Positions 1 through 64,000 of a stretch of DNA of 64,000 bases are shown here, one piece after another (the stretch's first letter is position 1; the number at the start of each line of letters is the position of its first letter). The notes under the pieces were generated by a model, which saw only the letters and a list, made by a program, of their open reading frames with translations, ran no database searches and was not told the origin of the DNA. Both the position numbers and the translations under genes were made by a program. This DNA is from Amphiscolops sp. MND2022 (taxonomy: Eukaryota), in contig OZ076409.1 of assembly GCA_964187785.1 (NCBI GenBank), positions 73,472,001 to 73,536,000 on the forward strand, written 5' to 3'.

Positions 1-196
1 TTATCTTCCATATTTGCTCCGATGACCAGGATTGGAAACTAAATTAACCCAAGGTACTTAGCCAAAACGAGCAATACCAACTTTTGATTGAAAACCTCAT
101 CACAGTTTTTCTTTGAAAATTACCTTCATTGACTTCTCAATTTATCAACTCAATCTCCTTAAGCGGCCCTATTTTGACACAAGCCTGCAGCGCTAG

Positions 197-2767
197 GTGC
201 CCGGATTTCTATTCATTAAAGTATGTTGCGCGTGTGGGTAGGGCCCCGTGGCGCGCTCTTGTGTCCCTGTTCTCATAACTGCAATTTCCGGCAGCATTCT
301 GAGCGATTTTCTAAACTATCCATACGATTCGGCTGAAATTTGGCACACGTACCCCCCTCGGCACGGTGAAGATGATTTCCTACTGACGTTTTTCCCGCAA
401 AATTTTTTTGTTGTCCAAAATAACGGTTTTTGGGGTAAAATTTTGAACTTTTTTTAAATTTCATCTTATATCTCGCCACGGGTTTACGCTAGCGCTTCAA
501 AACCCTGCTAAAGAAAGCTTGCAAACTGTCTCAGGAATGCGGTGTGAAATTTTCAGCACAATCGGACTTAAACTCGGGGAGATATAGCGTTTTTCCGGAG
601 CGGGGGGGTTTCATTTTTCTAACGGTCCAGCTTATCTTAGCCATTTTTTCGAAAATGTACTCGCCTAAAGACCTCCCCTGGCCGGTTTTATTCCCAGCAA
701 AACCATTTGGCCCTAAATACGGAGTTTCAGCGTTCCAGCATTCCCGGGCGAAAAGTTGTGGGACTTAGAAAATTTCAAAAATTTTCAAAAAAATTTTTTC
801 CGTTTTCCGCCCTCCCCCCCGAGGGGAAAAGACCCCCCAACCAGTAATTTGAGTGAATTCATGTGGAAAGGCCATGTTTAGAGGAGAAAAATCCCGTTTA
901 AATCGTCTTTTTATCTTTATTCAACGTTGACTTATGACGTTTTGAAGGTGATGTTTGGAGGTGTGAAGCCCGTGAAAAGTAAACGTTATGAGTATTTATC
1001 TGATCTGAAAGCCATTGAGATGAAACCTGTTTTGCTCAAAACGTAATTCATATCAGTTTGGTAGTCAATCAACACCCTTTGTTGTCATTTGACATCTTTT
1101 TTTGTTGATATAAGAAAAAATTTCGTGTATTTATTCATTTTTTTCTCATCAAATAACTTGAAACAGTTGAGTACATTCCATCCCCCCTTCACGGGGGAGA
1201 TGAGAATGTACTCGCAAAAAGCCCCAAACTACGGCCCTTACCTTCCCGAGCTACGCAGTATAAAGATTGCATATTGGTTCCGACATTTTGATAGAGTTAT
1301 ATCTTGGTAATCTGTCTGGATACGCAGAAAAACCAGCACGTGCTTTTTTTACCAAGTTGCTTACAACGACATTTATTTTATATCAACGCCCCCATCTTTA
1401 TCAACGCCCCCCGTCCGTGGGCATGCCGAGGCATGCCCTTCGACGACGCGCACCAAAATTTTCCCCGAGCGCGTTAGCCTAGGTGCCCGGATTTCTATTC
1501 ATTAAAGTATGTTGCGCGTGTGGGTAGGGCCCCTGGCGCGCTCTTGTGTCCCTGTTCTCATAACTGCAATTTCCGGCAGCATTCTGAGCGATTTTCTAAA
1601 CTATCCATACGATTCGGCTGAAATTTGGCACACGTACCCCCCTCGGCACGGTGAAGATGATTTCCTACTGACGTTTTTCCCGCAAAATTTTTTTTGTTGT
1701 CCAAAATAACGGTTTTTGGGGTAAAATTTTGAATTTTTTTTAAATTTTATCTTATATCTCGCCACGGGTTTACGCTAGCGCTTCAAAACCCTGCTAAAGA
1801 AAGCTTGCAAACTGTCTCAGGAATGCGGTGTGAAATTTTCAGCTCAATCGGACTCAAACTCGGGGAGATATAGCGTTTTTCCGGAGCGGGGGGGTTTCAT
1901 TTTTCTAACGGTCCAGCTTATCTTTGCCATTTTTTCGACAATGCACTCGCCTAAAGGCCTCCCCTGGCCGGTTTTATTCCCAGCAAAACCATTTGGCCCT
2001 AAATACGGAGTTTCAGCGTTCCAGCATTCCCGGGCGAAAAGTTGTGGGACTTAGAAAAGTTCAAAAATTTTCAAAAAATTTTTTTTCCGTTTTCCGCCCT
2101 CCCCCCCTAGGGGAAAAGACCCCCCAACCAGTAATTTGAGTGAATTCATGTGGAAAGGCCATGTTTAGAGGAGAAAAATGCCGTTTAGAACGTCTTTTTA
2201 TCTTGGCTCAACGTTGACTTATGACGTTTTGAAGGTGGTGTTTGGAGGTGTAAAGCACGCGAATAGTAAACGTTATGAGTATTTATCTGATCTGAAAGCC
2301 ATTGAGATGAATATGGTTTGCTCAAAACGTAATTCATGTCAATTTGGCAATCAATCAACACCCTTTGTTGTCGTTTGACATACTTTTTTGTTGTTATAAT
2401 AAAAAATTTTGTGTATTTATTCATTTTTTTCTCATCAAATAACTTGAAACAGTTGAGTACATTCCATCCCCCCTTCCGGGGGAGATGAGAATGTACTCGC
2501 AAAAAGCACCGAACTACGGCCCTAACCTTCCCGAGCTACGCAGTATAAGGATTACATATTGGTTCCGACATTTTCATAGAGTTAAATCTTGGTAATCTGT
2601 CTGGATATGCAGAAAAACCAGCACGTGCTTTTTTATACCAAGTTGCTTACAACGACAATTATTTTATATCAACGCCCCCATATTTATCAACGCCCCCCGT
2701 CCGTGGGCATGCCGAGGCATGCCCTTCGACGACGTATACCAAGATATTCCCGAGCGCGTTAGCCTAG
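197..2767 (+). mobile_element. Units U1 and U2, subfamily A (1286 and 1285 bp)
   Basis: Share CACGTACCCCCCTCGGCACGGTGAAGATG and a tail with GGGCATGCCGAGGCATGCCC. The same subfamily occurs at 44878-47442, 48727-50013 and 52562-56390. Confidence 0.85.
1419..1438 (+). other. Subterminal palindrome GGGCATGCC-GA-GGCATGCCC (example copy)
   Basis: Perfect 9-bp inverted repeat ~40-60 nt before CTAG in U1-4, 8, 18, 19, 25, 26, 28 and 30-36. Its position resembles the Helitron termination hairpin. Confidence 0.75.
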
Positions 2768-4036
2768 GTGCCGGGATTACTATTCGATAAGGAATTTTGC
2801 GCGGTTGGGTAGGGCCCCGTGAGCGCGCCAGGGGATAGTGTTAGAACAACAAGGATTTGGGCATCAGTTGGGAGCGATTTTCTAAACTATCCGTACGATT
2901 TTGCTGAAATTTGGCACGAAGCTTCCTTGGAACATTCTAAGAACAAATCCCTACTGGCGTTTTGCTGGGAAAAATCAAAAAGTTGGTCAAAAATGCGATT
3001 TTCCGACAAAATTTTGGGGTAAAATTTTTTTGAAACGTTATATCTCGCCACAGGGTCACGCTAGCGCCTCGCAACCTATGATCGTGTTTTGTTGGGCGTT
3101 GTCTGTAGAACACGTATGCCAAATTTGGTGGCGATCGGACTTAAACTCAGGGAGATATAGCGATTTTTTAGGTGCATTTTTTGACATTTTTTGCATTTGC
3201 CGATTTATCTCTGCCGTTTTTGCCCAAATTTTTTTTGAGACACTCTCCTAAAGACCTCCCCTGGCCGGTTTACCTCCCAGAAAAACCATTTGGCCCTAAA
3301 TACGAAGTTTCAGCGTTCTAGCATTCCCGGGCAAAAAGTTGTGGGACTTAGAATAGTTTTTATGGTAACGCAAAATGTGTAAAGTCAACTTCAGGCCTCC
3401 CAAAGTCAAAGAACTTCCACACAACTAGGATTGCAAGTGGGTGCATGTGGAAAGTACTCGGATAGACGAGAAAAATGAGCTATAGAACGACTCTGTAGCT
3501 TAACCTGACGTTGACTTATGACAATTTTAGTGTGAGCTTGCTATTTGGTGTAAAAATTCAAATGATGAAAATCGAAGCTAAGTCTCATCCAAAACTCATC
3601 GGAATACGTTCAATGCACCCCAAAGCGGATTAATTCGAGATGTTTAGTGCAGCAACACCATTCAAGACCATTTGACCCATTTTTATAAGTTTTGACAACG
3701 TATTATTCATACGAGAGCACGAAACAGTTGAGTACATTCCATCTCCCTTTCGGGGGAGATGAGAATGTACTCGCTAAAGTCCAGGTACTACAGCCCATAT
3801 TTGCTTTTATGCGACGCTCTTATGCTAGTGCGCATACTTTTTAATCGTTTAACTGAATTTTCTTCTGTCTGCACTTTGACTTTGACTTGACATATAGTGA
3901 ACGTTTTGTCTTACAACTTACAAATGAGTAACGTCAACGCCCCATCCTTGCATCAACGCCCACCGTCCGTGGGCATGCCGAGGCATGCCCTTCGACGACG
4001 TATGCCAAGATATATCCCAAGCGCGGTAGCCGCTAG
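2768..4036 (+). mobile_element. Unit U3, subfamily C (1269 bp)
   Basis: Body closely matches U30 (51296-52561) but the head differs; palindromic tail. Confidence 0.8.
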
Positions 4037-5426
4037 GTGGTCGGGTATTTTTTTTTACTCGTAGATGGCGTTTGCGAGGCTTTGGGGAGGGCCCCGTGCC
4101 GAGCCTGTACCGAAATTTACCACATACCAGAAGTGTCCGATTTAATCGAGATCTCAAAAACTAACCGTTAGAATTCTCTGAATTTTTGCATGTGGCCCCT
4201 AATCAATGAGTAATGAAAAAGTGTAGGAGTGACGGTTGCTGAAAAACTTGTCTTTGTTGCACTTTTTGCGCAATTTTTGTCGCATTGTTGCGTTTTTTAT
4301 GTCATTTTCGACTTTTCAAGCAAAAAACTCATAGATGCTTTGTTCCTAGCGTATCAAGTGTGGAGCACGAAAAGTTGCAGCATCTTCCATTACGTATGCT
4401 GAGAAAATTTGGTTGCCCTCGGATTACCCCCCACAGAGATAGAGAGGTGCATCCGGGTATTTTTGACCCCTAAATTTGGGAAATTGCTAATTTTCATAAT
4501 AAAGCCGTAGATTTAGCGCGTGCACACCCTGCTGAAGATTTGTTATGCATTTTGAGATAGATCCGATGACATGCGTTGAGTTCACCCCCATCACCCCCTT
4601 GACCGGAAATGAACGTTTTTGTGCACTTTCAGACCGGAAGTCTCCATTTTCACTGGTAAGGAGGCATTGTACGAGCAACTAGCAGGATATCAAAAGTGAA
4701 GTATAACCTGGGGTCAATTTAATGACCACATGTTGTCCAGTCATGGGTTTCGCTATGACCGGAAATGGGCTTAAAACCCCCTTTTGGTAGTATTTTTATC
4801 AATTTTCCTTGTGTTTGGTCCACATTCAAGTTGCGTAAGTCAGTTGAACCAGTGAGAGCATAAAATATATATTCACTGCGTAGTCGTAACTGACACTGCC
4901 AGATACCGGAAGTAACCCCCTGTGACCGGAAGAGGTCAATTTTGACCGGAAATGGTCCAAAAAGTAGCGTAAATGCAGTTTTCAATGCTTTTTAAGGTCA
5001 AGTTATTAGTATTTTTCAATTTGAATGCTTTTTTCCACGCAAAAAGCTAACATCGTTGCATGTTTTGCTGAAGATCGGAAAAGTGATCACCATTATCACC
5101 CCCGATAGCCTTTCAAGTTGACCTTTGGTCAATCTTGAAGGCTATCTGTTCTGAAAACGAAAAATAGTGGAATTTTGTTTCCTCCTTTCTCTTGATATTT
5201 TTCCTTCAAGTCAATTTGTCAAAAGAAAGACATTTGTTCAACTGAGTGATCTGAAACTCGTCCAGAGGTGTCACACACACGAATACCATTTGAAGTTGAA
5301 GTACACAAATCAGGGTAGTATTAGACATCACACACTCCTACCAACTCCCACCGTCTGTGGGCATGCCGAGGCATGCCCTTCGACGACGTATGCCAAATAG
5401 CGCTACAGGGCGCCCACATTTGCTAG
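4037..5426 (+). mobile_element. Unit U4, divergent subfamily D (1390 bp)
   Basis: Same junctions, head loop and tail palindrome as other units, but a different interior with repeated ACCGGAAR and a GATAGCC...GGCTATC hairpin. Related to U19 (35993-37383, 1391 bp). Confidence 0.8.
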
Positions 5427-7989
5427 GTGGTCCGGTACACTACCAACAAAACATTGTCGCGAGCAACGGGGAGGGTCCTGTAGCGAGCTTTATAGGAAAA
5501 AAACGGCGGAGCATATATACTAGGCAACATCGGCACTTTTACCCACGATCTCTGAAATGAACCATACGATCCGGCTCAAAATTTGCATACGGCTTCCTCT
5601 AGCGATTCTAAGAACTTTTCCCTACTGGCATTTTGCCCGGAAAATTCAAAAAGTGGGTCAAAATCTTAGTTTTTTGGTCGAAAAATGGCGTTTTTTTGGA
5701 AAAAATTTTTTTAAGAGCCCATATCTCGCTCCCAGGTGCTCGGAGCGGGTCGCATGTGGACGTTGATATTGCTGGGCACTTCTTAAGGAGTCCGTAGACA
5801 AATTTTCGTACAGATCGGATGAAAATTGACTGAGTAATAGCCGCAAATCCGACGAATTTTTCAGAAAATTTTGGTACACCTAGTCTATCTCTGCCGTTTT
5901 TTGCCCAGATTTTTTTCCAGGACCTCTCCTAAAGGCCTCCCCTGGCCGGTTTACCTCCCAGAAAAACCATTTGGCCCTTTTGCCGCAGTTTCAGCGTTCC
6001 AGGATTCCCCGGGTAAAAGATAAATGACTTAGAATTTTTTCGAAAATTTTTCAAAATTTTTTTTTCAACTTCAGGCCCCCCAAAGTCAAGAAATTTCCAC
6101 ACAACTAGTATTGCAAGTGAATGCATGTGGAAAGTGCTCGAATAGACGAGAAAAATGAGCTATTATAAAGTTCTGTAGCTTAACCTGACGTTGACTTATG
6201 ACAATTTTAGTGTGAGCTTGCTATGTGAGAAAAAAATTTCATAAATTGAAAATCGAAGCTAAGTCTCATCGGAATACGTTCAGTGGACCCCAGCGCTGTT
6301 TAAATGCCGCTGTTTGGTGCAGCAACGCCCTTTAAGGTCATTTGATCCATTTTTTACAGGTTTTGACACCGTCTTATCCATTCGAAAGTTCGAAAGAGTT
6401 GTGTACATTCCATCTCCCCCCTTCTATGGGGGAGATGGTAATGTACACGCAAAAAGCCAAGTACTACTGTTCTTTTTATACTTGGAGTGGCCTCGGCAAT
6501 GCAGTAGCGGGAGCTCCAGGTCGTTTGCCGTAGCCTTATTGTCTGTTTAGACTTTGCTACAACAGAAACTATGTTACTGAACATGAAAAAGATTGTTTCA
6601 ATCCAAATGTTTTTTCAAATAATAATACCAAATAACACATGTCCATATATCCACTATTGCCACTAAATACTGGCGCATCGTCGCACAACGAAGCCTGCAG
6701 CGCTAGGTGCCATAATCCATTGATTAGCCCAACACTTCGAGGGCGGGGTAGGGCCCCCAGCCCGAGTCAAAAGTCGAAGACAAACAACTTAAGGCCCAAA
6801 CGCCAGTCTGACCCCGATCTCGAGAACGAGCCCCGCGATTTGGCTGAAAATTTGCATACGGCTTCCTCTAGCGATTCTAAGAACTAATCCCTACTGGCAT
6901 TTTGCTGTGAAAACGCAGGATGTGGGTCAAAATCTTAGTTTTTTGGTCAAAAAAAGGCATTTTTTCGAAAAAAATTTTTTCAAGAGCCCATATCTCGCTC
7001 CCAGGTGCTCGGAGCGGGTCGCACGTGGACGTTGATATTGCTGGGCACTTCGTAGGGAGTCCGTAGACAAATTTTCGTACAGATCGGATAAAAATTGACT
7101 GAGTAATAGAAAACTTTGAAAGTGATTTTGACGACATTTTTCGAAAACCTAGTCTATCTCTGCCGTTTTTTGCCCAGATTTTTTTCCAGGACCTCTCCTA
7201 AAGACCTCCCCTGGCCGGTTTACCTCCCAGAAAAACCATTTGGCCCTTTTGCCGCAGTTTCAGCGTTCCAGGATTCCCCGGGTAAAAGTAAAATGACTTA
7301 GAGTTTTTTCGAAAAATTTTCAAAAAATTTTTTTTTCAACTTCAAGCCTCCCAAAGTCAGGAAACGTCCACACAACTAGTATTGCAAGTGAATGCATGTG
7401 GAAAGTGCTCGAATAGACGAGAAAAATGAGCTATTATAAACCTCTGTAGCTTAACCTGACGTTGACTTATGACAATTTTAGTGTGAGCTTGCTGTGTGAA
7501 AAAATTTCAAAAATTGAAAATCGAAGCTAAGTCTCATTCAAAACTCATCGGAATACGTTCAATCCATCCCAAAGCGGTTTATTTCCAGCTATATAGTGCA
7601 GAAACACCAGTCAAGACCTTTTGACCCATTTATATTAGTTTTGACACCGTCTTATCCGTTTGAAAGTTCGAAACAGTTAAGTACATTCCATCTCCCCTCC
7701 GTGGGAGATGGTAATGTACTCGCAAAAAGCCAAGTACTATCGCCCCATTCTACCCGTAATGGTGCTAGAAATGCAGTAGCGGGAGCGCCAGGCTGTTTAC
7801 AGTAGCCTTTATGGGTGTTGTGACTATGTATTACAAATCTAACTATGTTACTGAACGTGAAAAAGTTGTTTCAATCCCAAAATTTTTTTTCAACTTTAAT
7901 ATGTCACCAATAAACATATATCCATCTTTCCTACTACAACCACCCTACCACCCGGCCCCTCGTATCTTTGTTCAACCGTACACGTCTAG
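5427..7989 (+). mobile_element. Units U5 and U6, subfamily B (1280 and 1283 bp)
   Basis: Shared body GAGCCCATATCTCGCTCCCAGGTGCTCGGAGCGGGTCGCA. U5 is nearly identical to U10 (22950-24229). Confidence 0.85.
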
Positions 7990-8776
7990 GTGCCATAATC
8001 CATCGATTTGCTTATCACTTCGAGGGCAGGGTAGGGCCCCTTGCCCGAGCCAAAATGTCGGATACTTACGACACTCAACGTAAGGCGGATGCTAAAGCGA
8101 GACCCCGATCTTGGAAACGGCCCATTCGATTTGGCTCAAATTTTGCATGTGGCTTCCTCTAGCAATTCTAAGAACTAATCCCTACTGGCGTTTTGCCCGG
8201 AAAATTTTTTTTGTTGACTTATAGACAATTTTAGGTGCCGAAAATGGCGTTTTTTTCGAAAATTTTTTTTCAAGAGCCCATATCTCGCTCCCAGGTGCTC
8301 GGAGTGGGTCGCATGTGGACGTTGATATTGCTGGGCACTTCGTAAGGAGTCCGTAGACAAATTTTTGTACAGATCGGATAAAAATTGACTGAGTAATAGC
8401 CGCAAATCCGACGAATTTTTCAGAAAATTTTGGTACACCTAGTCTATCTCTGCCGTTTTTTGCCCAGATTTTTTTCCAGGACCTCTCCTAAAGGCCTCCC
8501 CTGGCCGGTTTACATCCCAGAAAAACCATTTGGCCCTTTTGCCGCAGTTTCAGCGTTCCAGGATTCCCCGGGTAAAAGTAAAATGACTTAGAATTTTTTC
8601 GAAAAATTTTCAAAAAAATTTTTTTTCAACTTCAAGCCTCCCAAAGTCAGGAAACGTCCACACAACTAGTATTGCAAGTGAATGCTTGTGGAAAGTGCTC
8701 GAATAGACGAGAAAAATGAGCTATTATAAACCTCTGTAGCTTAACTTGACGTTGACTTATGACATTTTAAGTTTAG

Positions 8777-8826
8777 GTAGGTTTTGAATTCATTTTATTT
8801 CCAACTAATTTTTTTTCTTTTTCCAG
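8777..8826 (+). other. Candidate 50-nt spliceosomal intron in the RepHel 5' leader
   Basis: AG|GTAGGT donor, CTAAT branch-like site (8805-8809), long pyrimidine tract and CAG acceptor. Confidence 0.45.
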
Positions 8827-8845
8827 GTGTCGGAGTCGACTTTTC

Positions 8846-8906
8846 CTGCATACAGGTAGTATTTGGTAACAGGTTTCTGCATACAGGTAGTATTTGGTAA
8901 CAGGTT
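8846..8906 (+). repeat. 31-bp tandem duplication upstream of RepHel
   Basis: CTGCATACAGGTAGTATTTGGTAACAGGTT at 8846 and 8877. Confidence 0.9.
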
Positions 8907-9220
8907 ACGTCTGGTTAGTTTGTGGGTTGAGTAGTAAATGGTGATCATCGATCGACGGAAAGCGTGGTCGGTGATTAGGTGTTCTCCACAAAACTAGTGG
9001 TAAAACAAGTAATCCTCGGTAAATATGCGGGCAAAGGTGAAAATGAAGTGCAACCGTGTTTCCAGTTATACGCAATCTTTGTTATGTGTCAAAAATGATG
9101 ACTTTTTCTGATGATGTCTAACAGGATCAGCGTTTTTCCAGATTTGATTTGATTCGCTTTGATCTGCTTTGCCAACATTAACTTGTTTTGCTTGGCTATC
9201 AAAGAGGCTAAAAGTCCACA

Positions 9221-12200
9221 ATGCCTCGTGGTAGAGGGAGAGGAAGAAGTGCCATTGTGAGGAGGAGGTGTGATATTCATAACATTTTCATTGGAGTAGA
9301 TGGCGTCTGTGCAAGATGTCAGGAGAGTCAGAGAGTTCAACATGATGCCGAACAAGATTTAACAGCTGTCAATGTCCCCAATCCCCCAGATGTCCCCAAT
9401 GATGAAGAGAGAGCAGAAGTTGAGATGACAAATGTGGAGATGTGCGAGAAGTGTTGCAGGACGACAACAGATGAATACAAACTTGACTTTCACTCTATGA
9501 ACCGAGACTCACTGCATACGACTAAATTTGGTAAACACGTTGCTGAGATGGGTGGAGAGGTCATCAGGATGTGTTACCAATGCGTCAACTACACTAACAA
9601 CGTTAAACGGCACTTGGACTGGCCTAATGCTTGGCCCAGTGTTATGTATACTCTACTTTTCGAGACACATAGGTTTAACTCTGATGCAAAAAAACTCTAT
9701 AAACTACTTCCACATGAAATTAAGGAATCATTTAAAGAAAACATGAATACTGTTCACCCATTAATTGCGACTTCCGTAACTGACTCTGTATTTAGGGATA
9801 TAACTCGCGAAAAGGAAGACTTTTGGAATTTAGTTAACACTAGAACTGCCAAAACACTCGTAAAAGCTTTAACTACTCACTGCTTTCCTAACATTAGGTG
9901 CCCTGCAGGTTGCTTTGAATTTGTCGAAAAATCTAACGGAATTTCTTTTGCACATTTTTTGAATTACCTTTTTCCTTTATTCACTAGTTTTAATGCAAAC
10001 AGTAAAAAATTTCTTAAAGGAGCACGAGATGATTTCACTAAACGTTTAACTCTCTTAGAAAAGTTTACTATTTCACCATGTGTAATCTGCAACGAAAAAG
10101 GTTTACAATTAGTAGTCTGTTCTGACCACAAAAACGGGGTGCCACTTAACTATGTTCATGTTCAAACGAACCCAGTGGCAGGTAACATCAGCCCGAAATC
10201 CGTCGACAGGTTAGCTCTCATGGTTTCGAGTGTCAGAACAGTAAGACCTTTGAAGATTGGCGCTAAAAGTGCTACTTTCACTATGTGTCGGGTTGACAGT
10301 GGACGCATAAGTGGTGTCAGTTCTACTGTTCTACACAGGTTCAGGAATTTTGAATGTCCTTTAAATTACTTACATCAAAACATGGAAAAACTTTTGATTA
10401 ATTGTCGTGATGATGTTAAGGAAATTATTAGGGTTTGTTGTCATAACCAAGAGATAAGCCAAAATTTAGCTGAAGCGTTACTTGAATTTCAAATCCCAGT
10501 TTCCTTAGCCACAATTGAAGAACACTGTAAAAATGCCACTGTTTTCAACATGAGCTCTCTGATGCGAATGAAGGACTTCGTTGAAACATGTCCCGATGAC
10601 ATTCTAAGCCGTGATGGTTTCAAAAAACCGTTGACTTATGGACATAAAATGGACGGCTACGGTTTTGAGCCGTGTAACTTTCCTAAAATGTTTTCTCAGG
10701 ACCGGAGTTTGTTCACCTTTTGTTATTCCATCTTGTATAATGATTTATTATGGTCTAAGCTCTGTAGTTGTTCAGGTGAGACAGACCTACTGGTTGAACT
10801 TTGTAAACTCTTGAATTGTTTGAGGGGAAACAGAAGCCTTCAATATCATAACACCATTAATTCACTAATTACTAATTTTCACAGGGTCATAAATGAACTT
10901 TTTCCATCTAATGTAGAACCTTTAACCTCTTTATGTGATATACTAGAAGGTTGTCAAGTTGTTAATTGTCAAAGAGGATCCGTTGAAAACGCTGTAATTG
11001 ATTGCTCGCGAAATGATCTGGTTCTAGTCGTCGCAACAGAAGCTCCAGCTAGGGATCGTCAAATTCCTTTCTATTTAACATCAATCAATGGTAAAAATTT
11101 TCAATTGACATTCATCTCAGCTGAAGGTAAGGTAAGTTTAAGGCACGGTGATCCTTTCTTTAACTTTTGGACAATTTTGAATGACGGAAGCCGAGCGGTG
11201 AAGGATCCAACTTTGGAATACCAGTATAATAGAACTTGGAAATGTTTAATTTACGTACTTAAAACAGACTTGAATGAGGAAACTAAACTAAGATACTTAA
11301 AATACATGGGAGGTCAGGGAATTTTTTTCTGTCAGGAACATCAGCTGCCTTTATCTACTGATTATTTTAAAAGCCAACGAAAATGTAGTATGCCAAAAAA
11401 CAACCGTGACCACCAGATCTGTACCAGAAAATCTGCTTGGCGTTGTCCGGAAAAAAATTGTTTAGCGTCCGTTTGTAAGACTCATTTCCGTGAATTCTGT
11501 GACGCTAACGATAAGGTTTTGGTCGACAACACGCCTTCTGATGATGCAATCCAAGATAGCAGCGATGAAGAAGCTACTTTGCTAGAAGAACCTGAAGAGC
11601 AGCCGGAAAACAATTTGCCAGGGCCAAGCTTCGTGCTGGACGAGCAACAGCGACCACAAGAACCAGAAGCCAACATGGATGAGTTCGATTGCCCACAATT
11701 AATTGTGGATGCCGGGTTCCAAGAAACTGATGCTTTTGCCACGGACGCTGGCTGCGAGCCCGTTTACTTGTCTAATGACTCTAATTTCGTTCCCATGCAT
11801 GTACTTTTAAATGGTGAATGTCAACTAATGAAAAGATTAAAATATCCCTCCCACATAGGCAAAAAGTTTCAACGCTTTTTTCAAAACTTTGTTTCCACTC
11901 TGCCGGGTCGCTCGATTCCCCTGCTGCAACCTGAAGCTTGTCTTTTTCCAAGTATTTTTTACAAGCAATTAGAAGACGGTTCTTTCCCTGGCGCTTTGCC
12001 TTTTTTCTTGTACGACGATAAAAATGCCAACTCTAAATTAGAATTTGACGGTCTACATGAACACCTGCGCTTAAGACTTAAGGACGGCACGCTTTTAACG
12101 TCTTCCAACTTGGCCTACATAATGTATGCTTTCGACTGTGTATTAAATTTGTCACTCGTAAAATGTCACACAAATCAATTTTTTAAACGTGGGCTGCAGA

Positions 12201-16336: not shown

Positions 16337-16393
16337 AAATATAAAATTTAAAACGCTTTGTTTTTGGCACGAGTTTTCTTAAATGTGTTTGTT

Positions 16394-16521
16394 GGAATCG
16401 ACGATGAGCGTGGTTCCAGGTAGGTTTAAATTAGGTTGGTTTGCTGGAATCGACGATGAGCGTGGTTCCAGGTAGGTTTAAATTAGGTTGATTTGCTGGA
16501 ATCGACGATGAGCGTGGTTCC
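16394..16521 (+). repeat. 52-bp-period tandem repeat carrying hairpin motif A, downstream of RepHel
   Basis: GGAATCGACGATGAGCGTGGTTCC at 16394, 16446 and 16498; a further copy with ATAAG loop at 16850. Confidence 0.9.
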
Positions 16522-16606
16522 AGTTTTCTTACATTAGGTTACTTCTTAAAAGAAAATTGAAATCCTAAGAGTGAAACTTATTCGTTGAAAAAATTTTCAT
16601 TAAACA

Positions 16607-16829
16607 TTGTTGAGTATCGCACGAAGTTCGACTACAGAGGGTGGACACAGTGCGATATTCAACAAAATTGAATTTCATACAAAGCTCTACTAACAGAGGG
16701 TGGGCATCGTATGAAATTCAAATGTCTACTTTACCAGTAAAAGTAAATATAAAATTTGATAACACTGATAAAACTCTTTTGGGTATCGCACAAAGTTCGA
16801 CTGCAGAGGGTGGACACCGTGCGATATTC
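16607..16829 (+). repeat. Three copies of long hairpin motif B
   Basis: GTTGAGTATCGCAC...GTGCGATATTCAAC (16609-16663), TTGAATTTCATAC...GTATGAAATTCAA (16668-16721) and a third at 16781-16829. Further copies at 17755-17808 and 20137-20190. Confidence 0.85.
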
Positions 16830-53800: not shown

Positions 53801-56390
53801 CAAGATATACCTGGAGCGCGGTAGCCGCTAGGTGCCGGTGTATTTTTACACAATGGGGGATGTTGCGCGTGTGGGGAGGGTCCCTGACGCGCTTCCGTGG
53901 TTTCGGGTCTTCTAACCTATGATAGCGTGACACCTGACTTCGATCTCGTAAACTAGCCGTACGATTTGGCTGAAATTTGGCACACGTACCCCCCTCGGCA
54001 CGGTGAAGATGATTTCCTACTGACGTTTTTCCCGCTAAACATTTTTTGTTGACCAAAATAACGGTTTTTGGGGTAAAATTTTGAATTTTTTTTAAATTTC
54101 ATCTCATATCTCGCCACGGGTACACGCTAGCGCTTCCAAACCTTGCTGACGAAAGCTTGCAAACTGTCTCAGGAATGCGGTGTGAAATTTTCGGCTCAAT
54201 CAGACCTAAATTCGGGGAGATATAGCGTTTTTCCGGAGCGGGGGGGTTTCATTTTTCTAACGGTCCAGCTTATCTTTGCCATTTTTTCGAAAATGTACTC
54301 GCCTAAAGGCCTCCCCTGGCCGGTTTTATTCCCAGCAAAACCATTTGGCCCTAAATACGGAGTTTCAGCGTTCCAGCATTTCCGGGCGAAAAGTTGTGGG
54401 ACTTAGAAAAGTTCAAAAATTTTCAAAAAAATTTTTTTCCGTTATTTGGGTCCTCAAAGTGGTGGAAAAGACCCCCCAACCAGTAAAGCAAGTGAATGCA
54501 TGTGGAAAGCCCTTGTTTAGACGAGAAAAATGCCGTTTAGAACGTCTTTTTATCTTAACTTGACATTGACTTTTGTCGTTTTGAAGGTGACCGTTAGATA
54601 CGGAAAATTGATTTTTTGAGTATTTATCCCATCTGAAAGCCATTGAGATACAAAATTTTTTGTTCAAAACGTGTTTCATTGCAGTTTCGCTGTCCATTAA
54701 CACCCTTTGGTGTCTTTTGACGTAATTTTCTTTTCTATAATAACAATTTCTTTGTGTATTTATTCATTTTTTTCTCATCAAATAACTTGAAACAGTTGAG
54801 TACATTCCATCTCCCTTCCCGGGGGAGATGAGAATGTACTCGCTAAAGGTCAGGAACTACGGTCTATATCTTCCACAACACAAAAGAGATTGCAAATTGT
54901 TTCAGTTTGTCGCAGAAAACTTCTTTTTGCACTCTGTGACTCGACAAAGAGAACGTTTCTTACTTACTTTGAATCTCACCATACCACAACTCATCTCTAA
55001 CGTCAACGCCCCCCACACACATCAACGCCCCCCGTCCGTGGGCATGCCGAGGCATGCCCTTCGACGACGTATAGCAAAATATATTCGAACGCGGTAGCCG
55101 CTAGGTGCCGGGATTTCTATTCGATAAGGTATTTTGCGCGTGTGGGTAGGGTCCCTGGCGCGCTCTTGGGTATGGTGTTCACCAGCTAGGAAATAGGGGT
55201 CGATTTTTCGGGATCTCCTAAACTAGCCACACGATTTGGCTGAAATTTGGCACACGTACCCCCCTCGGCACGGTGAAGATGATTTCCTACTGACGTTTTT
55301 CCCGCAAAATTTTTTTTGTTGTCCAAAATAACGGTTTTTGGGGTAAAAATTTGAATTTTTTTAAAATTTTATCTTATATCTCGCCACCGGTTTACGCTAG
55401 CGCTTCAAAACCCTGCTAAAGAAAGCTTGCAAACTGTCTCAGGAATGCGGTGTGAAATTTTCAGCTCAATCGGACTTAAACTCGGGGAGATATAGCGTTT
55501 TTCCGGAGCGGGGGGTTTCATTTTTCTAACGGTCCAGCTTATCTTTGCCATTTTTTCGAAAATGCACTCGCCTAAAGGCCTCCCCTGGCCGGTTTTATTC
55601 CCAGCAAAACCATTTGGCCCTAAATACGGAGTTTCAGCGTTCCAGCATTCCCGGGCGAAAAGTTGTGAGACTTAGAAAAGTTCAAAAATTTTCAAAAATT
55701 TTTTTTTTCCGTTTTCCCCCCTCCCCCCCTAGGGGAAAAGACCCCCCAACCAGTAATTTGAGTGAATTCATGTGGAAAGGCCATGTTTAGAGGAGAAAAA
55801 TGCCGTTTAGAACGTCTTTTTGTCTTGGCTCAACGTTGACTTATGACGTTTTGAAGGTGATGTTTGGAGGTGTAAAGCACGTGAATAGTAAACGTTATGA
55901 GTATTTATCTGATCTGAAAGCCATTGAGATGAATATGGTTTGCTCAAAACGTAATTCATGGCAGTTTGGCAATCAATCAACACCCTTTGTTGTCGTTTGA
56001 CATACTTTTTTGTTGTTATAATAAAAAATTTTGTGTATTTATTCATTTTTTTCTCATCAAATAACTTGAAACAGTTGAGTACATTCCATCCCCCCCTTCC
56101 GGGGGAGATGAGAATGTACTCGCAAAAAGCACCGAACTACGGCCCTTACCTTCCCGAGCTACGCAGTATAAGGATTACATATTGGTTCCGACATTTTCAT
56201 AGAGTTAAATCTTGGTAATCTGTCTGGATATGCAGAAAAACCAGCACGTGCTTTTTTATACCAAGTTGCTTACAACGACAATTATTTTATATCAACGCCC
56301 CCATATTTATCAACGCCCCCCGTCCGTGGGCATGCCGAGGCATGCCCTTCGACGACGTATACCAAGATATGTTCGAGCGCGTTAGCCTAG
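44878..56390 (+). mobile_element. Units U25-U33, interleaved subfamilies in the order A,A,B,A,B,C,A,A,A
   Basis: Junctions end at 46148, 47442, 48726, 50013, 51295, 52561, 53831, 55104 and 56390. U25 and U31 are nearly identical. Confidence 0.85.
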
Positions 56391-58406
56391 GTGGTCGGGG
56401 TTTTCTCCCCACCTTTATTTGCGAGCGCGGGAGACGGGTCCTGTCGCGAGCCTTAGATACCAAAAATAGCCTATCCGCGACCGGGTCAAAAAAATGCGAT
56501 CTCGAAAACTAGCCGTACGATTCGGCTGAAATTTGGCACATGGCTTCCTATAACAGTTCTAAGAAACATTTACTACTGACGTTTTGCTGGCAAAAATCGA
56601 AAAGTGGGTCAAAATAACGGTTTTTGGGGTAAAAAGTAGCGTTTTTTTGAAAATTTTGCATTTCACAGCCAATTACTCGGAAATGGTCGATCCAGCGCAG
56701 TAACGCCTTGCTGATTTATTGTTGGGCACGTCAAGAAGCGTACGTACACAAATTTTGGTCCATATCGGACTGAAACTTGGGGAGATATTAACGGTAGTTT
56801 GGGGGTTTCAAACCGCTATTTTACCGGAAATTGCACTTTTTGACCGGGAAGGAGTTGTCTGAGTGCGGGGTCGTCTGGTAATGTTTTGTAGAGCATCTGG
56901 GGACGTAGTGGGGGACATGTAATTTAATGACCCCGGTTAACCCCTCGGACGGGAAATGACCGTTATGTGGGTTTTAAATGTGGCCCCCGCCAATTTTCCC
57001 CGTTATTTCCGGTGTGAAGGAGTGGTAGTAGCGCGCCGGGTGCCTTATATCAAAAGTACGTTTAGACAAGGACCTATTGGAAACATGTGGTTTGGGACCC
57101 TTTGAACGGACCCGTTAGCCGCTAATGGGGTGACTGCCTCCTTTTTTTGGGGGTAAAACCGTAAAACGGGCATTGAAGTGAAATTAACTCGTGAACGCGT
57201 GGAGCTATCGTGTCCTTCACTACTACAAGGTTTCATACCCATGATATGGTGCCTTCAGGGGGGCGAACAGATTTCCGCTATCTATCACCGTTACGGACTT
57301 GGCCCCCCAGCCTAACCGCTATGTGACCGGAAATGTCACTTTTTGAGCCCAAAGTGTCGGTCCCAGCGTGGCAACGTTAGGTAACCTATTGTAGTACACA
57401 TTGAGACGAGTTGGGGGATTTAGTTTCAGTCACACCCTGTTGGCCCGTTAGGTCGGAAATGACCGTTATGTAGTGAAAAATGGGATTTTTATAGTTTTTG
57501 AAGGCCATTTCGGGCAGGAAGGAGGGGTAATATGACTTTGGACACCATATGATGGAAGACGTGAAGTGTGACGAGCATTCCGGATTAACCGTTATGATGA
57601 CCCGGAAGTCCCCCTGGCCCCGGAAATGACCAAAAAAATGTAACATTTTGTGTTTTTTGATTAAAAATGTTTGTTATTTAACCGAATAAAGTACATGTTA
57701 GGTGTTTCAATTTCTTCCAGAGGTGAATATAGTCCAATTACATGGTGGGGGGTAACGGTATATTGCCCCGGAAGTCCAACCCGTTGGGTCTGAGTATGTT
57801 TTTCGGGTTTTAAAATGTGTCAAAACGTACTTTTGTGTAATAAATCTCTATTGTAGGCTAATAAGGACCATTTTTGAAGAGTTTAAATTTTTTCATAGTA
57901 GTTTGTGGAACACCAAAAACTTAAATAACATAACCGTTATAATTTGATAGCCTTTCAAGTTGGCCTTGTGTCAACTTGGAAAGGCTATCCTTCAAGACTC
58001 ATGCAACAAAGAAGTTTTTGGGTACATTTGTAATGCTTTAGTGTCAATTAGAGTATCAACAAGAGTATACCAAGCACTAAAACTATGTCTAGTTTTCGTT
58101 ATTAGGATATTAGTTTCCTGAATATTTGTCGGAAATGCTTTTTTAAATCTCTTTTAATGTGGTCTAAATACTCTGAAAACACTTTATCGAACCAATTTTC
58201 TTGGATGAACCTTAGTAACAATACTAAAAATCGTAGACAACCTTGCTTCGTTTAAATATTTGAAGCTGAAACCGCACCTTACCGTTGCTCAAACTTCAAC
58301 CCGACGCCCCATAGCATACATCAACGCACATCGTCTGTGGGCATGCCGAGGCATGCCCTTCGACGACGTATGCCAAATACCTTTAACCCGACGCCCGCAG
58401 TCCTGG
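56391..58406 (+). mobile_element. Unit U34, divergent (2016 bp), ending in CTGG
   Basis: Interior homologous to U18; palindromic tail; junction CTGG|GTG at 58403-58409. Confidence 0.75.
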
Positions 58407-61400
58407 GTGGAGGTTATTTTATAATAATTAAAGTGTTTTTTTCCGGAGTTTGTGGCTTTGGAAAAAACAAAAGGCGAGAAATTGGGCACTCCGGGCTGAA
58501 CCGTATACACTCAAAATTCGCCCGATATTTATACGATCTCGAAACCCAGCCGTACGATTTGGCTGAAAATTTGCATGCGGCTAGAAAATCAGATTCTAAG
58601 AACTATTTCCTGTTGACATTTTTTTGAAATTTTTGTGTACGTTTCCCCCCCGCCCCCTAAAGGGGTCAATTTTCCCCAATTTTGCACTTATGAGTCAAAT
58701 TCTCAAAACTGGTGGATCTGAGCGTATTCCCGGCGGGGACAACTTTTAACAAGCGCTCTTTAGTAGACCTATTTGACTTTTTACTTTGGTGGTACGTTCA
58801 CCCCCCAAGGAGGAAATGGCGTTTTTGTGACTTCCGGTCGAGACTTTTTTCACCCAAAAAATAGAAATCAGCCAGTTTTGAGCAGGAAGGAGTGGATTTA
58901 AAGTGTCTGTAGCCTGCTAGAAATTTGTTGGGCTTGTAGCGTTAGATCTCATACCAAGTCTGGTTTTCACCCCCAAACCCCCCTCGAGACCAAAATTCAT
59001 CCAAACGTTTTACCTCTATTTGTAGTTTTTTTCACAAAATGTCGTCATTTCCATCGGTAAAGATTTGAATTAGGGGCTCCTAATAAGGTACCAAGGTTCA
59101 AGTACAGTTGGAATGCAACTGAGTGACCCTTTTTGGGCCTCTCGTGTGTTCGGCAATGACCGGAAGTGGTATAAACCCCCCTTTTTTGACGTTTGTTGAC
59201 CTTGAGACTTGCGCTTAGATGACGTTTATGTCGCGCAAATCCTACAAACCAGTATTAGGATGACATGCTAGCCAACTAGAGACCAATAAGGGAAACTATA
59301 ATATACCGGAAGTAACCCCCCCTTGACCGGAAGTTGTCATTTTTGACCGGAAATGGTCCAAAACCTAGCCTGAAAGCAGTTTTTCACTGCTTTCTGAAGT
59401 CAACTTAATACTTTTTAAATATTCGCGAGCTTGTATTCAGATTCGTTTTTGTTACCCGTGCAATTTGCAACAAATATTCATCCGTAAACTTTTCTCTATG
59501 ATGTCGTCGGATAGAGAAATATCGTGTTTTTGAGACTCTTTTTAAAAAATATTAGACTATATCTGTCATTTTTACCCAAAGTTTTCAACAGTACAACCAC
59601 AGTGGTTAATCTCTGCCCAAATATTTGCCTTTCAAAACTATTTGGCCCATTGGCCTCAGTTTGAGCGTTCCAACTTTGCGTGGTCATAAGCTAAGGGACT
59701 TAAAAAATTCCAAACTTTTTCAAAAAAAAAATTCTCACATTCATGTCCCCCAAAGTGACGAAATTTCCACACAACTAGGATTGCAAGTGGATGCATGTGG
59801 CAAGCCCTATAAACGAAGAGAAAAGAGCCGCTTAGAACGTCCCTTTATCGTAACTTGACGTTAACGTATGGTGCTTTGAATGAGAGGTTGATAAGAGGTC
59901 GAGAAGTCAAAGTGTGTAAATGGAACTTATGTCTCGTCGAAAACTCATCGGAACACATGTAATGAAACCCAAATTGTCCACAATTGCAGTTGCCTACTGC
60001 AACAACGTCTTTCTGGTACATTTTACCCTTTCTCAAAAGTGTCAAAATTACTTTTAAATTCATTAGCAAGAAACATTTGAGTACATTTTCATCTCTCCCC
60101 AGTGGGTGAGATGAGAATGTTCTTGCTAAAAGCCAGGTACTACGGCCCATTTTTCTTTTGTTGCGACGCATTCTGTGCTTTAGCACATAGATACTTCTTT
60201 TCGGTCTCACGTTTTGTATACATTCTGATTTGTTGTTTTAAGTTTCTCGTCATAACTTTACATAAATTTACAACCATAAAGCGTTATCGTCAACGCCACA
60301 AGCATTTAGACGCCCACCATTCCGTAGGTATGTCGAGGCATATCGTTCGATTACGTATGTCAAAACGCAAACAAGACAAAAAGTGCTGAAATTCTGGAAC
60401 AGTGACAAACAATTTTGACTATTTGACATATGGTATGTTTTTATATGGAATTTACACATCACTGACATTTCACAACATTCCAGCTGACACCCACATACCA
60501 ACATCAACGCCCACCGTCCGTGGGCATGCCGAGGCATGCCCTTCGACGACGTATGCCATTTTTTTGTATCTACACCCGATTGCGCTAGCTGCTAGGTGGA
60601 GGTTATTTTATAATAATTAAAGTGTTTTTTTCCGGAGTTTGTGGCTTTGGAAAAAACAAAAGGCGAGAAATTGGGCACTCCGGGCTGAACCGTATACACT
60701 CAAAATTCGCCCATTATTTATACGATCTCGAAACTCAGCCGTACGATTTGGCTGAAAATTTGCATGCGGCTAAAAAATCAGATTCTAAGAACTATTTCCT
60801 GCTGACATTTTTTTGAAATTTTTGTGTACGTTTCCCCCCCGCCCCCTAAAGGGGTCAATTTTCCCCAATTTTGCACTTATGAGTCAAATTCTCAAAATTG
60901 GTGGATCTGAGCGTATTCCCGGCGGGGACAACTTTTAACAGGCGCTCTTCAGTAGACCTATTGGATTTTGTACTTTGGTGGTACGTTCACCCCCCGAGGA
61001 GGAAATGGCGTTTTTGTGACTTCCGGTCGAGGCTTTTTTCACCCAAAAAATTGAATTAAGCCAGTTTTGAGCAGGAAGGAGTGGATTTAAAGTGCCTGTA
61101 CCCTGCTAAAAATTTGTTGGGCTTGTAGCGATATATCTCATACCAAGTCTGGTTGTCACCCCCAAACCCCCCTTGGGACCAAAATTCACTGAAACTTTTT
61201 TACCTCTGTTTGTAGTTTTTTTGCAAAATTTCGTCATTTCCATGGGTAGGGAGTTGAATTAGGGGCTCCCAATAGGGTACCAATGTTCAAGTACACTTGC
61301 AGTGCAACTGAGTGACCCTTTTTGGGCCTATCCTGTGTTCGACAGGGACCGGAAGTGGTGTAAACCCCCCTTTTTTGACGTTTGTTGACCTTGAGACTCG

Positions 61401-62784
61401 CGCTTAGATGACGTTTATGTCGCGAAAATCCTACAAACTAGTATTAGAATGACATGCTAGCCAACTAGAGAGCACTAAGGGAAAATATACTATACCGGAA
61501 GTAACCCCCCGTGACCGGAAGTTGTCATCTTTGACCGGAAATGTTCCAAAACATAGCGTTAAAGCAGTTTTCACTGCTTTTTAAAGTCAACTTATTACTT
61601 TTTCAATCTCCGCGAGCTTATATTCAGGTTTGTTTTTGTTACCCGTGCACTTTGCAACAAATATACATCTGTAAAACTTTCTCTATAATATCTTCGGATA
61701 GAGAAAAACGTGTTTCTGGGACTTTTTTCAAAAATTTTAGATATGTCTGTCATTTTTTGCCAAAGTTTTTCAACAGTACAACCATAGTGGTTAGTCTCTG
61801 CCCAAATATATGCCTAACAAAACTTTTTGGCCCATTGACCTCAGTTTGAGCGTTCCAGCTTTGCGTGGTCATAAGCTAAGGGACTTTAAAAATTTTCAAA
61901 CTTTTTCAAAAAAACAATTTCTCACATTCATGTCTCCCAAAGTAAAGAAACTTCCACACAACTAGGATTGAAAGTGGATGCATGTGGCAAGCCCTATAAT
62001 TGAAGAGAAAAATGCCGCTTAGAACGACTCTTTATCGTATCTTGACGTTAACGTATGGGGCTTTGAATGAGAGCTTGATAAGAGGTCGAGAAGTCAAAGT
62101 GTGTAAATGGAACGTATGTCTCGTCGAAAACTCATCGGAATACATTATATGAACCCCAATTGTCCTCAATTACAGTTGCCTAGTGCAACAACGTCTTTCA
62201 GGGACATTTTACCCATTTTCTTAAGAGTCAAAATTATTTTTAAATTCAGTTAGCAAAAAACACTTGAGTACATTCTCATCTGTCCCCAGCGGATGAGATG
62301 AGAATGTTCCTGCTAAAAGCCAGGTACTACGGCCCACTTTTGTTTTAATGCGACGCATTCCCTGCTTTAGCACATATATATTTTTATTTCTCCTGATTTT
62401 TTGTACACACTGTAAATTGTTATTATAAAATTCTTGTCATTACGTTACATAAATTTACAACCATAAAACGTTATCGTCAACGCCAAATACATTTATACGC
62501 CCACCATTCCCAAGGTATGTCGAGGCATACCTTTCGATTACGTATGTCAAAACGCAAACGCGATAAAAAGTGTTGAATTACAGAAACGCTGACAAACAAT
62601 TTTAACTAATTGACACATGGTAGGTTTTTATATGGAACTTACACATCACTGACATTTCACAACCTTGCAGCTGACGAACACATACGAACATCAACGCCCA
62701 CCGTCCGTGGGCATGCCGAGGCATGCCCTTCGACGACGTATGCCAATTTTTTTTCTATCTACACCCAATTGCGGTAGCAGCTAG
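58407..62784 (+). mobile_element. Units U35 and U36, adjacent diverged pair (2189 bp each)
   Basis: Same head GTGGAGGTTATTTTATAATAATTAAAG. Each has a D-like module, a degenerate B-like module and two copies of the tail palindrome. Confidence 0.8.
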
Positions 62785-64000
62785 GTGGCCGGAAATTTTT
62801 TTTTTCAGCAAAATCTTTGCCATTGGGGGAGGGGCCCCGGATGGCCAGTAGTACGGGATAGCTTCCTACCAAATCCAGGCGGAAAAAACGTGATTTTGGA
62901 AACTAGCCGTCAGAATTTGCTCAAATTTTGCATACGGCTTCCTATAACAATCCTAAGAACTAATCCCTACTGGCATTTTGCCCAAAAAACGCAAAAAGTT
63001 GGTCAAAATCTTAGTTTTTTGGTCAAAAAATGGCGTTTTTTCGAAAAAATTTTTTTTCAGAGACAATTACTCGTAACTGGTTCACCCAGCGCAAAAACGC
63101 CTAGCTGATTTATTGTTGGGCACTTCATGAGGAGTGCGTATACAAATTTTCGTCCAAATCGGATGAAAGTTGATTGAGAAATAACAGAAAATTTGAGGCA
63201 TTTTTTTGGAAATTTGTGAAATCCCAGTCTATCTCTGCCGTTTTTTGCCCAGATTTTTTTCCAGACACTCTCCTAAAGACCTCCCCTGGCCGGTTTACCT
63301 CCCAGCAAAACCATTTGGCCCTAAATACGGAGTTTCAGCGTTCTAGCATTCCCGGGCGAAAAGTTGTGGGACTTAGAAAAAATTTTTGGAAACGCAAAAT
63401 GTGTAAAGTCAACTTCAGGCCTCCCAAAGTCAAGAAACTTCCACACAACTAGTATTGCAAGTGAATGCATGTAGAAAGTACGTGAATAGACAAGGAAAAT
63501 GGGCTATAGAACGACTCTGTAGCTTAACTTGACGTTGACTTATGACATTTTGAGTGTGAGCGTCCTATAGGATTTTAATGTCAAAAATGAGATTTTGTAA
63601 GTCATGAGTCATCAAAAACTCATCGGAATACGTTCAATCATCCCCATAGCTGTTCAATCACCGATGTTTAGTAGAGCAACGCCATTATATGTCTTTGGAC
63701 CCATTTTAAAAATTTTCCTTACCGTCTTATTCGTCCGATATCACGAAACAGTTGAGTACATTCCATCTTCCCCCTTGTGGGGGAGATGAGAATGTACTCG
63801 CCAAAGACCTGATACAATGACCCATATTGGTTTTTATTTGACTTTTCTCACAATATTGCACACGGATAGCTGTGTTTGGTAAAAGTTTTCCTTTGCACCA
63901 TGTCTCCAGAAGCAAAACCACTTCTTTAGCTTACTACTTCTACTCAAACATCACTAACGTCAACGCCACATACTCGCATCAACGCCCACCGTCCGTGGGC
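62785..64000 (+). mobile_element. Unit U37 (B/C-like), truncated by the window edge inside its tail palindrome
   Basis: Starts after CTAG at 62781-62784 and ends in CAACGCCCACCGTCCGTGGGC. Confidence 0.8.

Follow-up and report, generated by a model that had tools for sequence, protein, structure and literature searches.

Eukaryotic Helitrons have been described as near-random inserters at A^T or T^T sites, and their tandem arrays have been ascribed to concatemers of one element. The closest precedent for the system reported here is the telomere-targeting Helitrons of Paramecium, a third clade whose elements end in CCAA and insert in C4A2 telomere repeats (bioRxiv 10.1101/2025.11.06.686955, PMC13085455). 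The bacterial IS91 selects targets, CTTG or GTTC, that resemble its terIS cleavage word CTCG, and the tetranucleotide beside its oriIS, which also resembles the terIS word, is described as essential (PMC13181058). Here we describe a window of 64,000 nt (the whole stretch analysed, G000:C1:73,472,001-73,536,000) in the 1.07-Gb genome of Amphiscolops sp. MND2022, which holds a one-directional array of Helitron-like elements beginning with GTG and ending with CTAG. Its best explanation, and in our judgement a probable one, is a self-targeting Helitron-like clade that inserts by a CTDG rule and homes to existing junctions between elements.

With a two-tyrosine (Y2) HUH Rep fused to a PIF1 helicase and no target duplication, the elements are Helitron-like in the broad sense. 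They share with HLE1 elements such as Helraiser (defining features of HLE1 and HLE2 from PMC11417382) the Y2-HUH Rep-PIF1 enzyme, the 3' CTAG (CTRR), the absence of duplication, an accessory RPA-like gene and non-autonomous derivatives; the palindrome before the 3' end of most units may be a counterpart of the HLE1 hairpin. They differ from HLE1 in starting with GTG instead of TC, in inserting after CTDG instead of at A^T, in their C-terminal GIY-YIG domain, 5' hairpin and mixed-family arrays, and in forming a separate clade; in a phmmer search from the Rep to the C terminus, Helraiser was matched in the helicase alone. A large RepHel with extra domains and a hairpin near the 5' end recall HLE2 (Helentron/Helitron2), but there are no asymmetric terminal inverted repeats (TIRs), no T^T target and no AP endonuclease or DUF6570, and the clade is again separate. 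One moss HLE2 with a captured GIY-YIG has been reported, but with TIRs and TT sites (PMC11417382). The Paramecium elements are alike in lying outside HLE1 and HLE2, in an end word that matches the target repeat, and in their absolute orientation bias, clustering and many intact open reading frames (ORFs) under purifying selection. They are flanked by host telomere repeats, whereas the elements here abut each other or unique DNA and end in CTAG; GIY and RPA are absent from the main text of that paper, with which the comparison is one of descriptions. IS91 has a Y2-HUH enzyme, insertion without duplication beside a tetranucleotide resembling the terminator word, subterminal palindromes and occasional terminator read-through, but it is bacterial, small and without a helicase, and the accessible text does not describe it as forming mixed megabase arrays. 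By analogy, the present elements would work like IS91 with a Helitron engine, although a Pfam scan of the main protein of the window's autonomous element found no IS91 transposase family.

The + strand of the window contains 37 CTRG|GTG junctions, 36 of them CTAG and one CTGG (58403), compared with 8 CTRGGTG matches on the - strand and 8.2 +/- 2.7 in the shuffled window with both strands summed (largest 16). The count is thus far above that of shuffles, and the description in the first-pass annotation, junctions in one direction without spacer or duplication, holds. Cutting at the junctions gives 35 complete units of 1261-2792 bp and one of 12,383 bp, which abut in a single orientation throughout:

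1..64000, + strand: head-to-tail GTG...CTAG array with 37 junctions, from a CTRGGTG word scan and cutting into units; cuts after 196, 1482, 2767, 4036, 5426, 6706, 7989, 20372, 21677 ... 60595, 62784
197..7989, + strand: six non-autonomous units of 1269-1390 bp
7990..20372, + strand: autonomous element of 12,383 bp, GTG...CTAG, without TIRs, exactly between two junctions, as had been claimed for the coding element
20373..62784, + strand: 29 non-autonomous units of 1261-2792 bp, of several families

The contiguous 264 kb around the window contain 147 such junctions, three autonomous elements and no host DNA between units. They are part of an array-dense domain of about 6 Mb on C1 (C1:70,454,838-76,487,313; marker matches, almost all of them in + orientation, extend from 70.5 to 76.5 Mb), of which about 0.45 Mb was read as sequence. 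Its outer borders are a host CTAG|GTG at 70,454,838 and CTAG|GTC host at 76,487,313, and its uniformity is imperfect, with one inverted match and two internal non-element flanks. Marker searches found more array clusters on C2, C3, C7, C8 and C10, unevenly across chromosomes; judged by sampled ends, the arrays appear to span megabases. The idea that the C1 domain is one insertion in one site was rejected, as its right flank is not a continuation of the left-flank repeat. The left border (G000:C1:70.4547 Mb, L141:700-837) is inside a repeat with a YADD reverse-transcriptase-like motif. Rfam at gathering scores gave no matches in the whole window, and Tandem Repeats Finder found minisatellites only, which lie in the autonomous element and in two further units. 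A region this repetitive might raise the suspicion of an assembly artefact, to which we give next to no credence: units differ by 0-60% and have unique neighbours, ORFs are intact, host boundaries are clean on several chromosomes, there are zero Ns across 324 kb, and independent ENA contigs, the longest of 1.5 Mb, carry close homologues.

Within arrays, the position of the cut in CTAGGTG is ambiguous, and element boundaries were therefore read against host DNA. All nine left boundaries without a preceding element end read CTGG (3), CTTG (4) or CTAG (2), then GTG; a pattern search of the whole genome, using one left end and a non-A base at -2, gave 13 matches, 10 of them CTNG, several of these being element ends. 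On the right, 13 matches to CTAG followed by a non-G base consisted of 10 AT and 3 TT (T at +2 in 13/13), and a further seven flanks read GT(A/C/T); single-case right flanks were GTT, ATA, GTG, ATG, GTA, GTC and ATT. In a first empty-site comparison, three of four intact units checked read CTTG|GTAATCTGTCTGG|GTA, and at C8:25,691,450 and 25,692,785 a whole unit occupies each of the two sites exactly, without loss or doubling of sequence. In a second one, the repeat left of the C1 domain was compared with its paralogues, and the three analysed, of five retrieved, continue CTAG|GTATC; for the C7 left flank, the search found no paralogue extending to the boundary. Because the two empty-site comparisons settle the question, we read the element, from sequence, as GTG...CTAG and the target as CT(A/G/T)G^NT, a word identical to the element's own terminator. 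All 147 units as cut begin with GTG, a start also seen directly after host flanks, and their 3' ends are CTAG in 143 cases, CTGG in three and TTAG in one. Filled and empty sites differ by no target-site duplication or deletion, and the generic CTDG^NT target serves in host DNA and within units as well. The examination of solo copies and their flanks that the first-pass annotation had proposed thus gives the same ends, with the target CTDG^NT and not A|T. CTAGGTG as a 7-bp duplication or a recombinase core was rejected, since host DNA varies at -2 in left flanks and at +1 and +3 in right flanks.

Self-matches of >=97% identity and >=400 bp within the 264 kb started within 15 bp of a junction in 74/139 cases and ended there in 70/139 (chance about 2%), their breakpoints peaking at -4 and +3 around the junction and a second time at +100 to +150 of units. 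Among 292 units from nine regions, 59 have a >=99% identical twin, and the feature is real, large and recently active. The 47 pairs at this identity have a left neighbour in common in two cases and a right one in one, and twins also occur across chromosomes. As near-identical units almost never have common neighbours, units arrive one at a time. Adjacent near-identical (>=97%) units number 2/146 against 1.1 expected, and because such neighbours are not enriched, concatemers and unequal crossover are excluded as the main source; large segmental duplications between arrays were also rejected, with none among the 292 units. The comparison of neighbour adjacency with unit relatedness had been suggested by the first-pass annotation, and its claim that read-through of a single donor cannot give the array is borne out by the junction breakpoints and the neighbour tests. 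One two-unit block, 35993-39761, does recur: a copy (99.3%) bounded exactly by junctions lies just upstream of the window and extends into its start, as terminator read-through predicts.

A satellite of Helitron origin that arose through rolling-circle concatemers or unequal crossover, to be shuffled later by host recombination or gene conversion, would have parallels in the tandem Helitron arrays of plants, bats and cnidarians (PMC5148889, PMC11934779, PMC5876387). It would also fit the few recurring two-unit blocks and the mosaic units: bases 5-110 are <85% identical in 60% of the 108 pairs with >=97% cores. We nevertheless hold it very improbable and largely refuted as the main mechanism, as near-identical neighbours are rare, the neighbours of twins differ, also across chromosomes, the same ends occur in unique host sites, and breakpoints peak in a 7-bp junction that is too short for homologous recombination; it may still explain the chimeric interiors. 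Other published cases, in their accessible text, are single-family tandem arrays, multimers or recombination-made mosaics and not the present rule (PMC6431247, PMC5148889, PMC8788227, PMC11934779, PMC10288648, PMC13565253, PMC9587614, bioRxiv 10.64898/2026.09.17.752431).

The order of units, which had been called shuffled, is mixed in family but not random. Same-family neighbours (>=80% identity) number 43/146 against 10.7 expected, with none of 5,000 shuffles as high, and family similarity declines over 10-20 units; of the pairs at >=99%, 10/20 are within 10 units compared with 10.8% expected. This clustering and decay with distance point to local hopping.

Within one 3'-end class, GTG comes next after 430 ends (all of the 100 listed are element starts), and other sequence after 20 (13 + 7). 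Generic CTDG^DT words occur 174 times in 38.9 kb of flank, about 4.5 per kb or, by extrapolation, about 4.8 million genome-wide, and we estimate the junctions at roughly 10^4 genome-wide. The apparent preference for junctions would then be of the order of 10^4, a figure that is an upper bound because selection removes dispersed copies. The proposal that units insert site-specifically at existing junctions is supported by these end counts together with the junction breakpoints and the single-unit mobility. The same elements and the same CTDG^NT rule could also act without homing, the arrays arising from local hopping, chromatin preference and selective loss of dispersed copies. Local hopping is real, family similarity decays with distance, and insertions at generic sites occur in host DNA as well as within units. 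Hopping guided by the word alone should, however, riddle the interiors of units, which contain internal CTDG^DT words; yet the 264 kb show junction insertions only, bar one at a mutated junction, and nested insertions were read at C8 only, a further one in the same site being listed for C1:74.37 Mb. We consider the account without homing unlikely, and active homing of the enzyme to junctions likely.

Several observations weigh against homing and the target rule. Three of the 13 non-CTAG left flanks deviate from CTNG, and one TAC right flank is found in five local copies (G000:C1:4,383,982-4,404,713), where the atypical ends are probably part of a locally duplicated host segment. The flanks of the 6-Mb C1 domain do not form halves of one site, and the window's autonomous element has no clear 3' hairpin (z about 0). 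The 430:20 ratio covers a single end class, with G-plus-non-T flanks outside the search, and the junction excess could be inflated by selection on dispersed copies or by chromatin preference. A test of whether upstream tails or downstream heads attract the enzyme gave no asymmetry (all p>=0.35). The tree that separates the clade is unrooted, with references labelled by Pfam domains and not by curated Repbase entries. Finally, the case is built on the sequence of one genome, and the arrays are known from this organism alone.

The mechanism that we propose for the homing clade builds on the chemistry of Helraiser-type HUH enzymes, in which an origin nick leaves a 5'-phosphotyrosine, the helicase peels off the strand and a second nick yields a circle with joined ends (PMC5876387), and on that of IS91. 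Rep would nick CTDG^GTG at the origin, and the top strand would be displaced by the helicase and the RPA-like protein. Nicked again behind the terminal CTAG, it would come free as a strand or as a circle with the joint CTAG|GTG, and the same active site would join the 5' GTG end to the target 3'-OH after CTDG. As the terminator word equals the target word, each element end would be a target and each insertion would renew the site. A junction is the terminator of one element, then the origin of the next; with one site specificity at origin, terminator and target, as in IS91, it would be both launch and landing site. In the most tentative step, the enzyme would be drawn to existing junctions, complete origins with CTAG|GTG and hairpin, far above generic sites. 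All families would use this common signal, building shared one-directional arrays as a harmless landing ground.

The autonomous element encodes two proteins, the second of which had been overlooked in the first-pass annotation:

9221..16336, + strand: ORF1, 2371 aa, with a Cys-rich N terminus, HUH/Y2 Rep, PIF1 helicase and C-terminal GIY-YIG
12311..13129, + strand: Rep core, with motif 1 (12326), HUH motif (12590) and two-tyrosine motif (13103)
14546..14947, + strand: PIF1 helicase, best Pfam stretch, Walker A at 14555
15989..16219, + strand: GIY-YIG domain, catalytic-type Tyr, Arg and Glu all present
18558..19673, + strand: ORF2, 371 aa, a predicted OB-fold RPA-like protein with conserved cysteines

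ORF1 matches Helitron_like_N (E 2e-10), PIF1 (3e-11) and GIY-YIG (2e-6) in Pfam. Its ratio of nonsynonymous to synonymous substitutions of 0.15 (one pair, with the copy at C1:73.635 Mb) points to purifying selection, and of the Rep tyrosines, Y1296 is invariant and Y1300 conserved in at least 90%. The N terminus (9443-11560) is clade-specific, with conserved Cys/His motifs and no Pfam match; its 860 aa, predicted without an alignment, gave no confident fold (predicted local distance difference test, pLDDT, 35), and the Atlas offered only a weak USP-like lead (0.84). ORF2 is predicted to fold into OB domains (pLDDT 81). Its best Foldseek match was the archaeal RPA 8aaj (E 8e-5, low TM 0.24), and its best VIA match the MCM10 OB (Z 9.0, root-mean-square deviation 3.7, 113 aligned), followed by Teb1 and RPA; the protein is thus a putative single-strand-binding protein. 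Homologues were aligned from eight other elements of the genome and from a distant GC-rich relative, L103 (probability 97.7%), whereas the downstream ORF of L105 was rejected as a homologue (probability 0.1%); the alignment behind the predicted fold included the L105 row and the L103 ORF. The ORF2 segment is flanked by related 52-bp minisatellites and a 66-bp repeat (16387-16523, 19970-20112). The longest inverted match between the termini is 8 nt, equal to the control. A candidate 50-nt intron (GT...AG by eye) lies in the 5' untranslated region at 8777-8826, and homology to non-autonomous units ends just upstream of it.

This enzyme is not alone: the notion of a single enzyme serving the whole array gives way to many autonomous families, some without GIY-YIG. 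The Rep query has 135 matches in the genome at about 32-95% identity (32-100% with its own copy), dozens of them within open frames of >2,000 aa. At least nine autonomous subfamilies with such junctions were found, with Rep identities of 32-95%. Of seven divergent families sampled with flanks, six have the CTAG|GT end, the exception being a copy at C9:3.38 Mb that adjoins an assembly gap. Autonomous elements of the clade are 12-23 kb and non-autonomous derivatives 1-5 kb long. The GIY-YIG domain, intact in the window's element, is missing from two of the other families that form junctions and degenerate in one more, and was rejected as a necessary targeting nuclease, since the two families without it end at the same junctions; it may help in trans the families that lack their own. 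In a 23-kb family member (G000:C3:3.158 and 3.174 Mb; L093:610-1278, L094:7025-7681), a 2.4-kb segment is duplicated, each copy with a ~220-aa ORF, on either side of the two main genes, and there are 354-bp internal repeats. Unit ends of the CACGTCTAG type (G000:C1:73.46-73.88, 76.16-76.48 Mb) cluster around autonomous elements that share this end type, and none are among the matches listed between 70.5 and 73.4 Mb of C1. Ordinary dispersed HLE1 and HLE2 elements coexist in the same genome (L049-L084).

The interiors of units had been described as ranging from near-identical to unalignable. The latter is overstated for the main class of 1.24-1.33 kb, in which 143 non-redundant units align over their full length at 41-85% mean identity per 50-column bin; the 1.39, 2.0-2.4 and 2.8 kb classes are more remote. 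Units of the 1.28-kb class form a single homologous superfamily, and their first ~780 bp are homologous to the 5' end of autonomous elements. Three structural features recur:

8024..8046, + strand: left-end hairpin around GGG(T/G)AGGG(T/C)CC, at about +38 to +55
1419..1438, + strand: subterminal palindrome, 44 nt before the CTAG end
7680..7722, + strand: strong internal hairpin of non-autonomous units (z -5.4 on a 91-nt fold)

The left hairpin is common to all families. Its loop is conserved and its arms vary with compensatory changes; two of the four consensus pairs show double changes, and most of 24 folded stems pair. The hairpin is a candidate origin signal. A palindrome 40-65 nt before the 3' end is found in 115/147 units and is not evident in the window's autonomous element. 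The internal-hairpin motif is present in 94/147 units, and the hairpin at 7680-7722 lies in a part for which BLAST finds no match in the region's three autonomous elements. Left ends (e.g., 197-306 vs. 2768-2877) are hypervariable or swapped around the conserved loop while the interiors are alike, which is opposite to the pattern in most transposons. Despite sequence divergence, unit length is kept within narrow limits, with 85/147 units at 1250-1299 bp and further classes near 1.39, 1.98, 2.19, 2.38 and 4.76 kb. Units <5 kb have ATG ORFs of at most 139 aa, leaving no cargo genes. In the units (e.g., 197-7989), AA/TT dinucleotides are phased at ~10.3 bp, with autocorrelation peaks at 10, 20, 31 and 40 and a peak-trough of 0.064, compared with 0 +/- 0.004 in run shuffles and -0.006 in ORF1; host flanks give 0.005-0.084, and the phasing is thus not unique to the array.

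Integrons rely on a tyrosine recombinase integrase, an attI/attC pair and gene cassettes. The array resembles them in being one-directional, with precisely bounded heterogeneous units and a renewable insertion site, but there is no tyrosine recombinase (both ORFs of the autonomous element are accounted for, and neither is one), no attI/attC and no gene cassettes, the units being transposon copies with their own ends. The suggestion of the first-pass annotation that this is an integron-like cassette array is not supported, given the lack of a dedicated integrase and of passive cassettes, the nine or more autonomous subfamilies and the generic CTDG^NT target. A related reading, an integron-like or host-co-opted platform with precise excision and reshuffling, or one serving as centromere, pairing site or small-RNA source, could draw on the exact single-unit boundaries and on a circle joint that would recreate CTAG|GTG. 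The constant ~1.28 kb length (85/147), conserved interiors, internal hairpin, 10-bp A/T phasing and many intact ORFs would fit it as well. It is a long shot, since there are no cargo ORFs and no separate integrase, no excision footprint was seen in the array sequences, and the arrays are uneven among chromosomes, not one each; nick-and-peel transposition, moreover, leaves the donor in place (Helraiser; PMC5876387, PMC13565253). Replitrons, too, are HUH transposons of eukaryotes and insert in a specific orientation 3' of a short target, but they are Y1, without a helicase and with direct terminal repeats (PMC10288648).

A protein search of 1.84 billion representatives gave 960 matches at E<=0.001; of 18 scanned for domains, 12 had GIY-YIG and 17 PIF1, and some had OTU or Ulp1 domains. 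The closest matches resemble this genome's own families, and the more distant ones include hagfish proteins (by UniRef names; UniRef100_UPI00358E8AEA cluster) and GC-rich metagenome contigs, one of which has an ORF2 homologue downstream (probability 97.7%). A scan of JGI metagenomes found 14 loci, eight of this clade, five weak ordinary-Helitron matches and one unassigned, on contigs of 2-14 kb that are too short for ends or arrays; in IMG/VR, none of 93 candidates were confirmed. For the tree, 62 proteins were gathered, 10 redundant or truncated ones dropped and five left without motif extraction, and 47 were kept, with 257 Rep and 321 helicase columns. The 38 clade sequences split on a long stem from five HLE1 references, labelled by Pfam score and motifs, and four HLE2 references, sequences of this genome with DUF6570 and OTU, UCH or AP endonuclease; support was 1.0 in FastTree (Rep, helicase and both together) and 100 in UFBoot. 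In the full-text literature, with Repbase, most subscription journals and supplements outside the search, we found no description of the clade, of the GTG...CTAG/CTDG rule or of mixed-family self-targeted arrays, and the clade is probably undescribed so far. HELIANO reported unclassified HLEs outside HLE1 and HLE2 in 19 genomes, forming at least four clusters that its accessible text leaves uncharacterised (PMC11417382), and the present clade may be among them.

Helitron target choice and joining are poorly known, and the defined 7-bp joint together with many intact, recent enzymes makes the question testable, with natural variants with and without GIY-YIG available for comparison. A helicase-equipped HUH transposase that would move 1-23 kb in a scarless, site-regenerating manner would be of interest to genome engineers, and annotation tools seeking TC...CTRR at A^T, or TIRs, would fail on such arrays. 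At its boldest, and this we regard as distinctly unlikely, the clade would be widespread, and its enzyme would home to any relative's head-tail joint and also remove units precisely, making the megabase arrays a renewable, integron-like shuffling platform, possibly co-opted by the host; if true, they would act as a natural scarless, iterative site-specific DNA writer, maybe centromere-like or a source of small RNAs. On the reading that we prefer, a self-targeting clade separate from the described Helitrons would follow the bacterial IS91 rule, its own ends being a shared landing site for many families, and would offer a route to megabase, satellite-like DNA through transposition alone.

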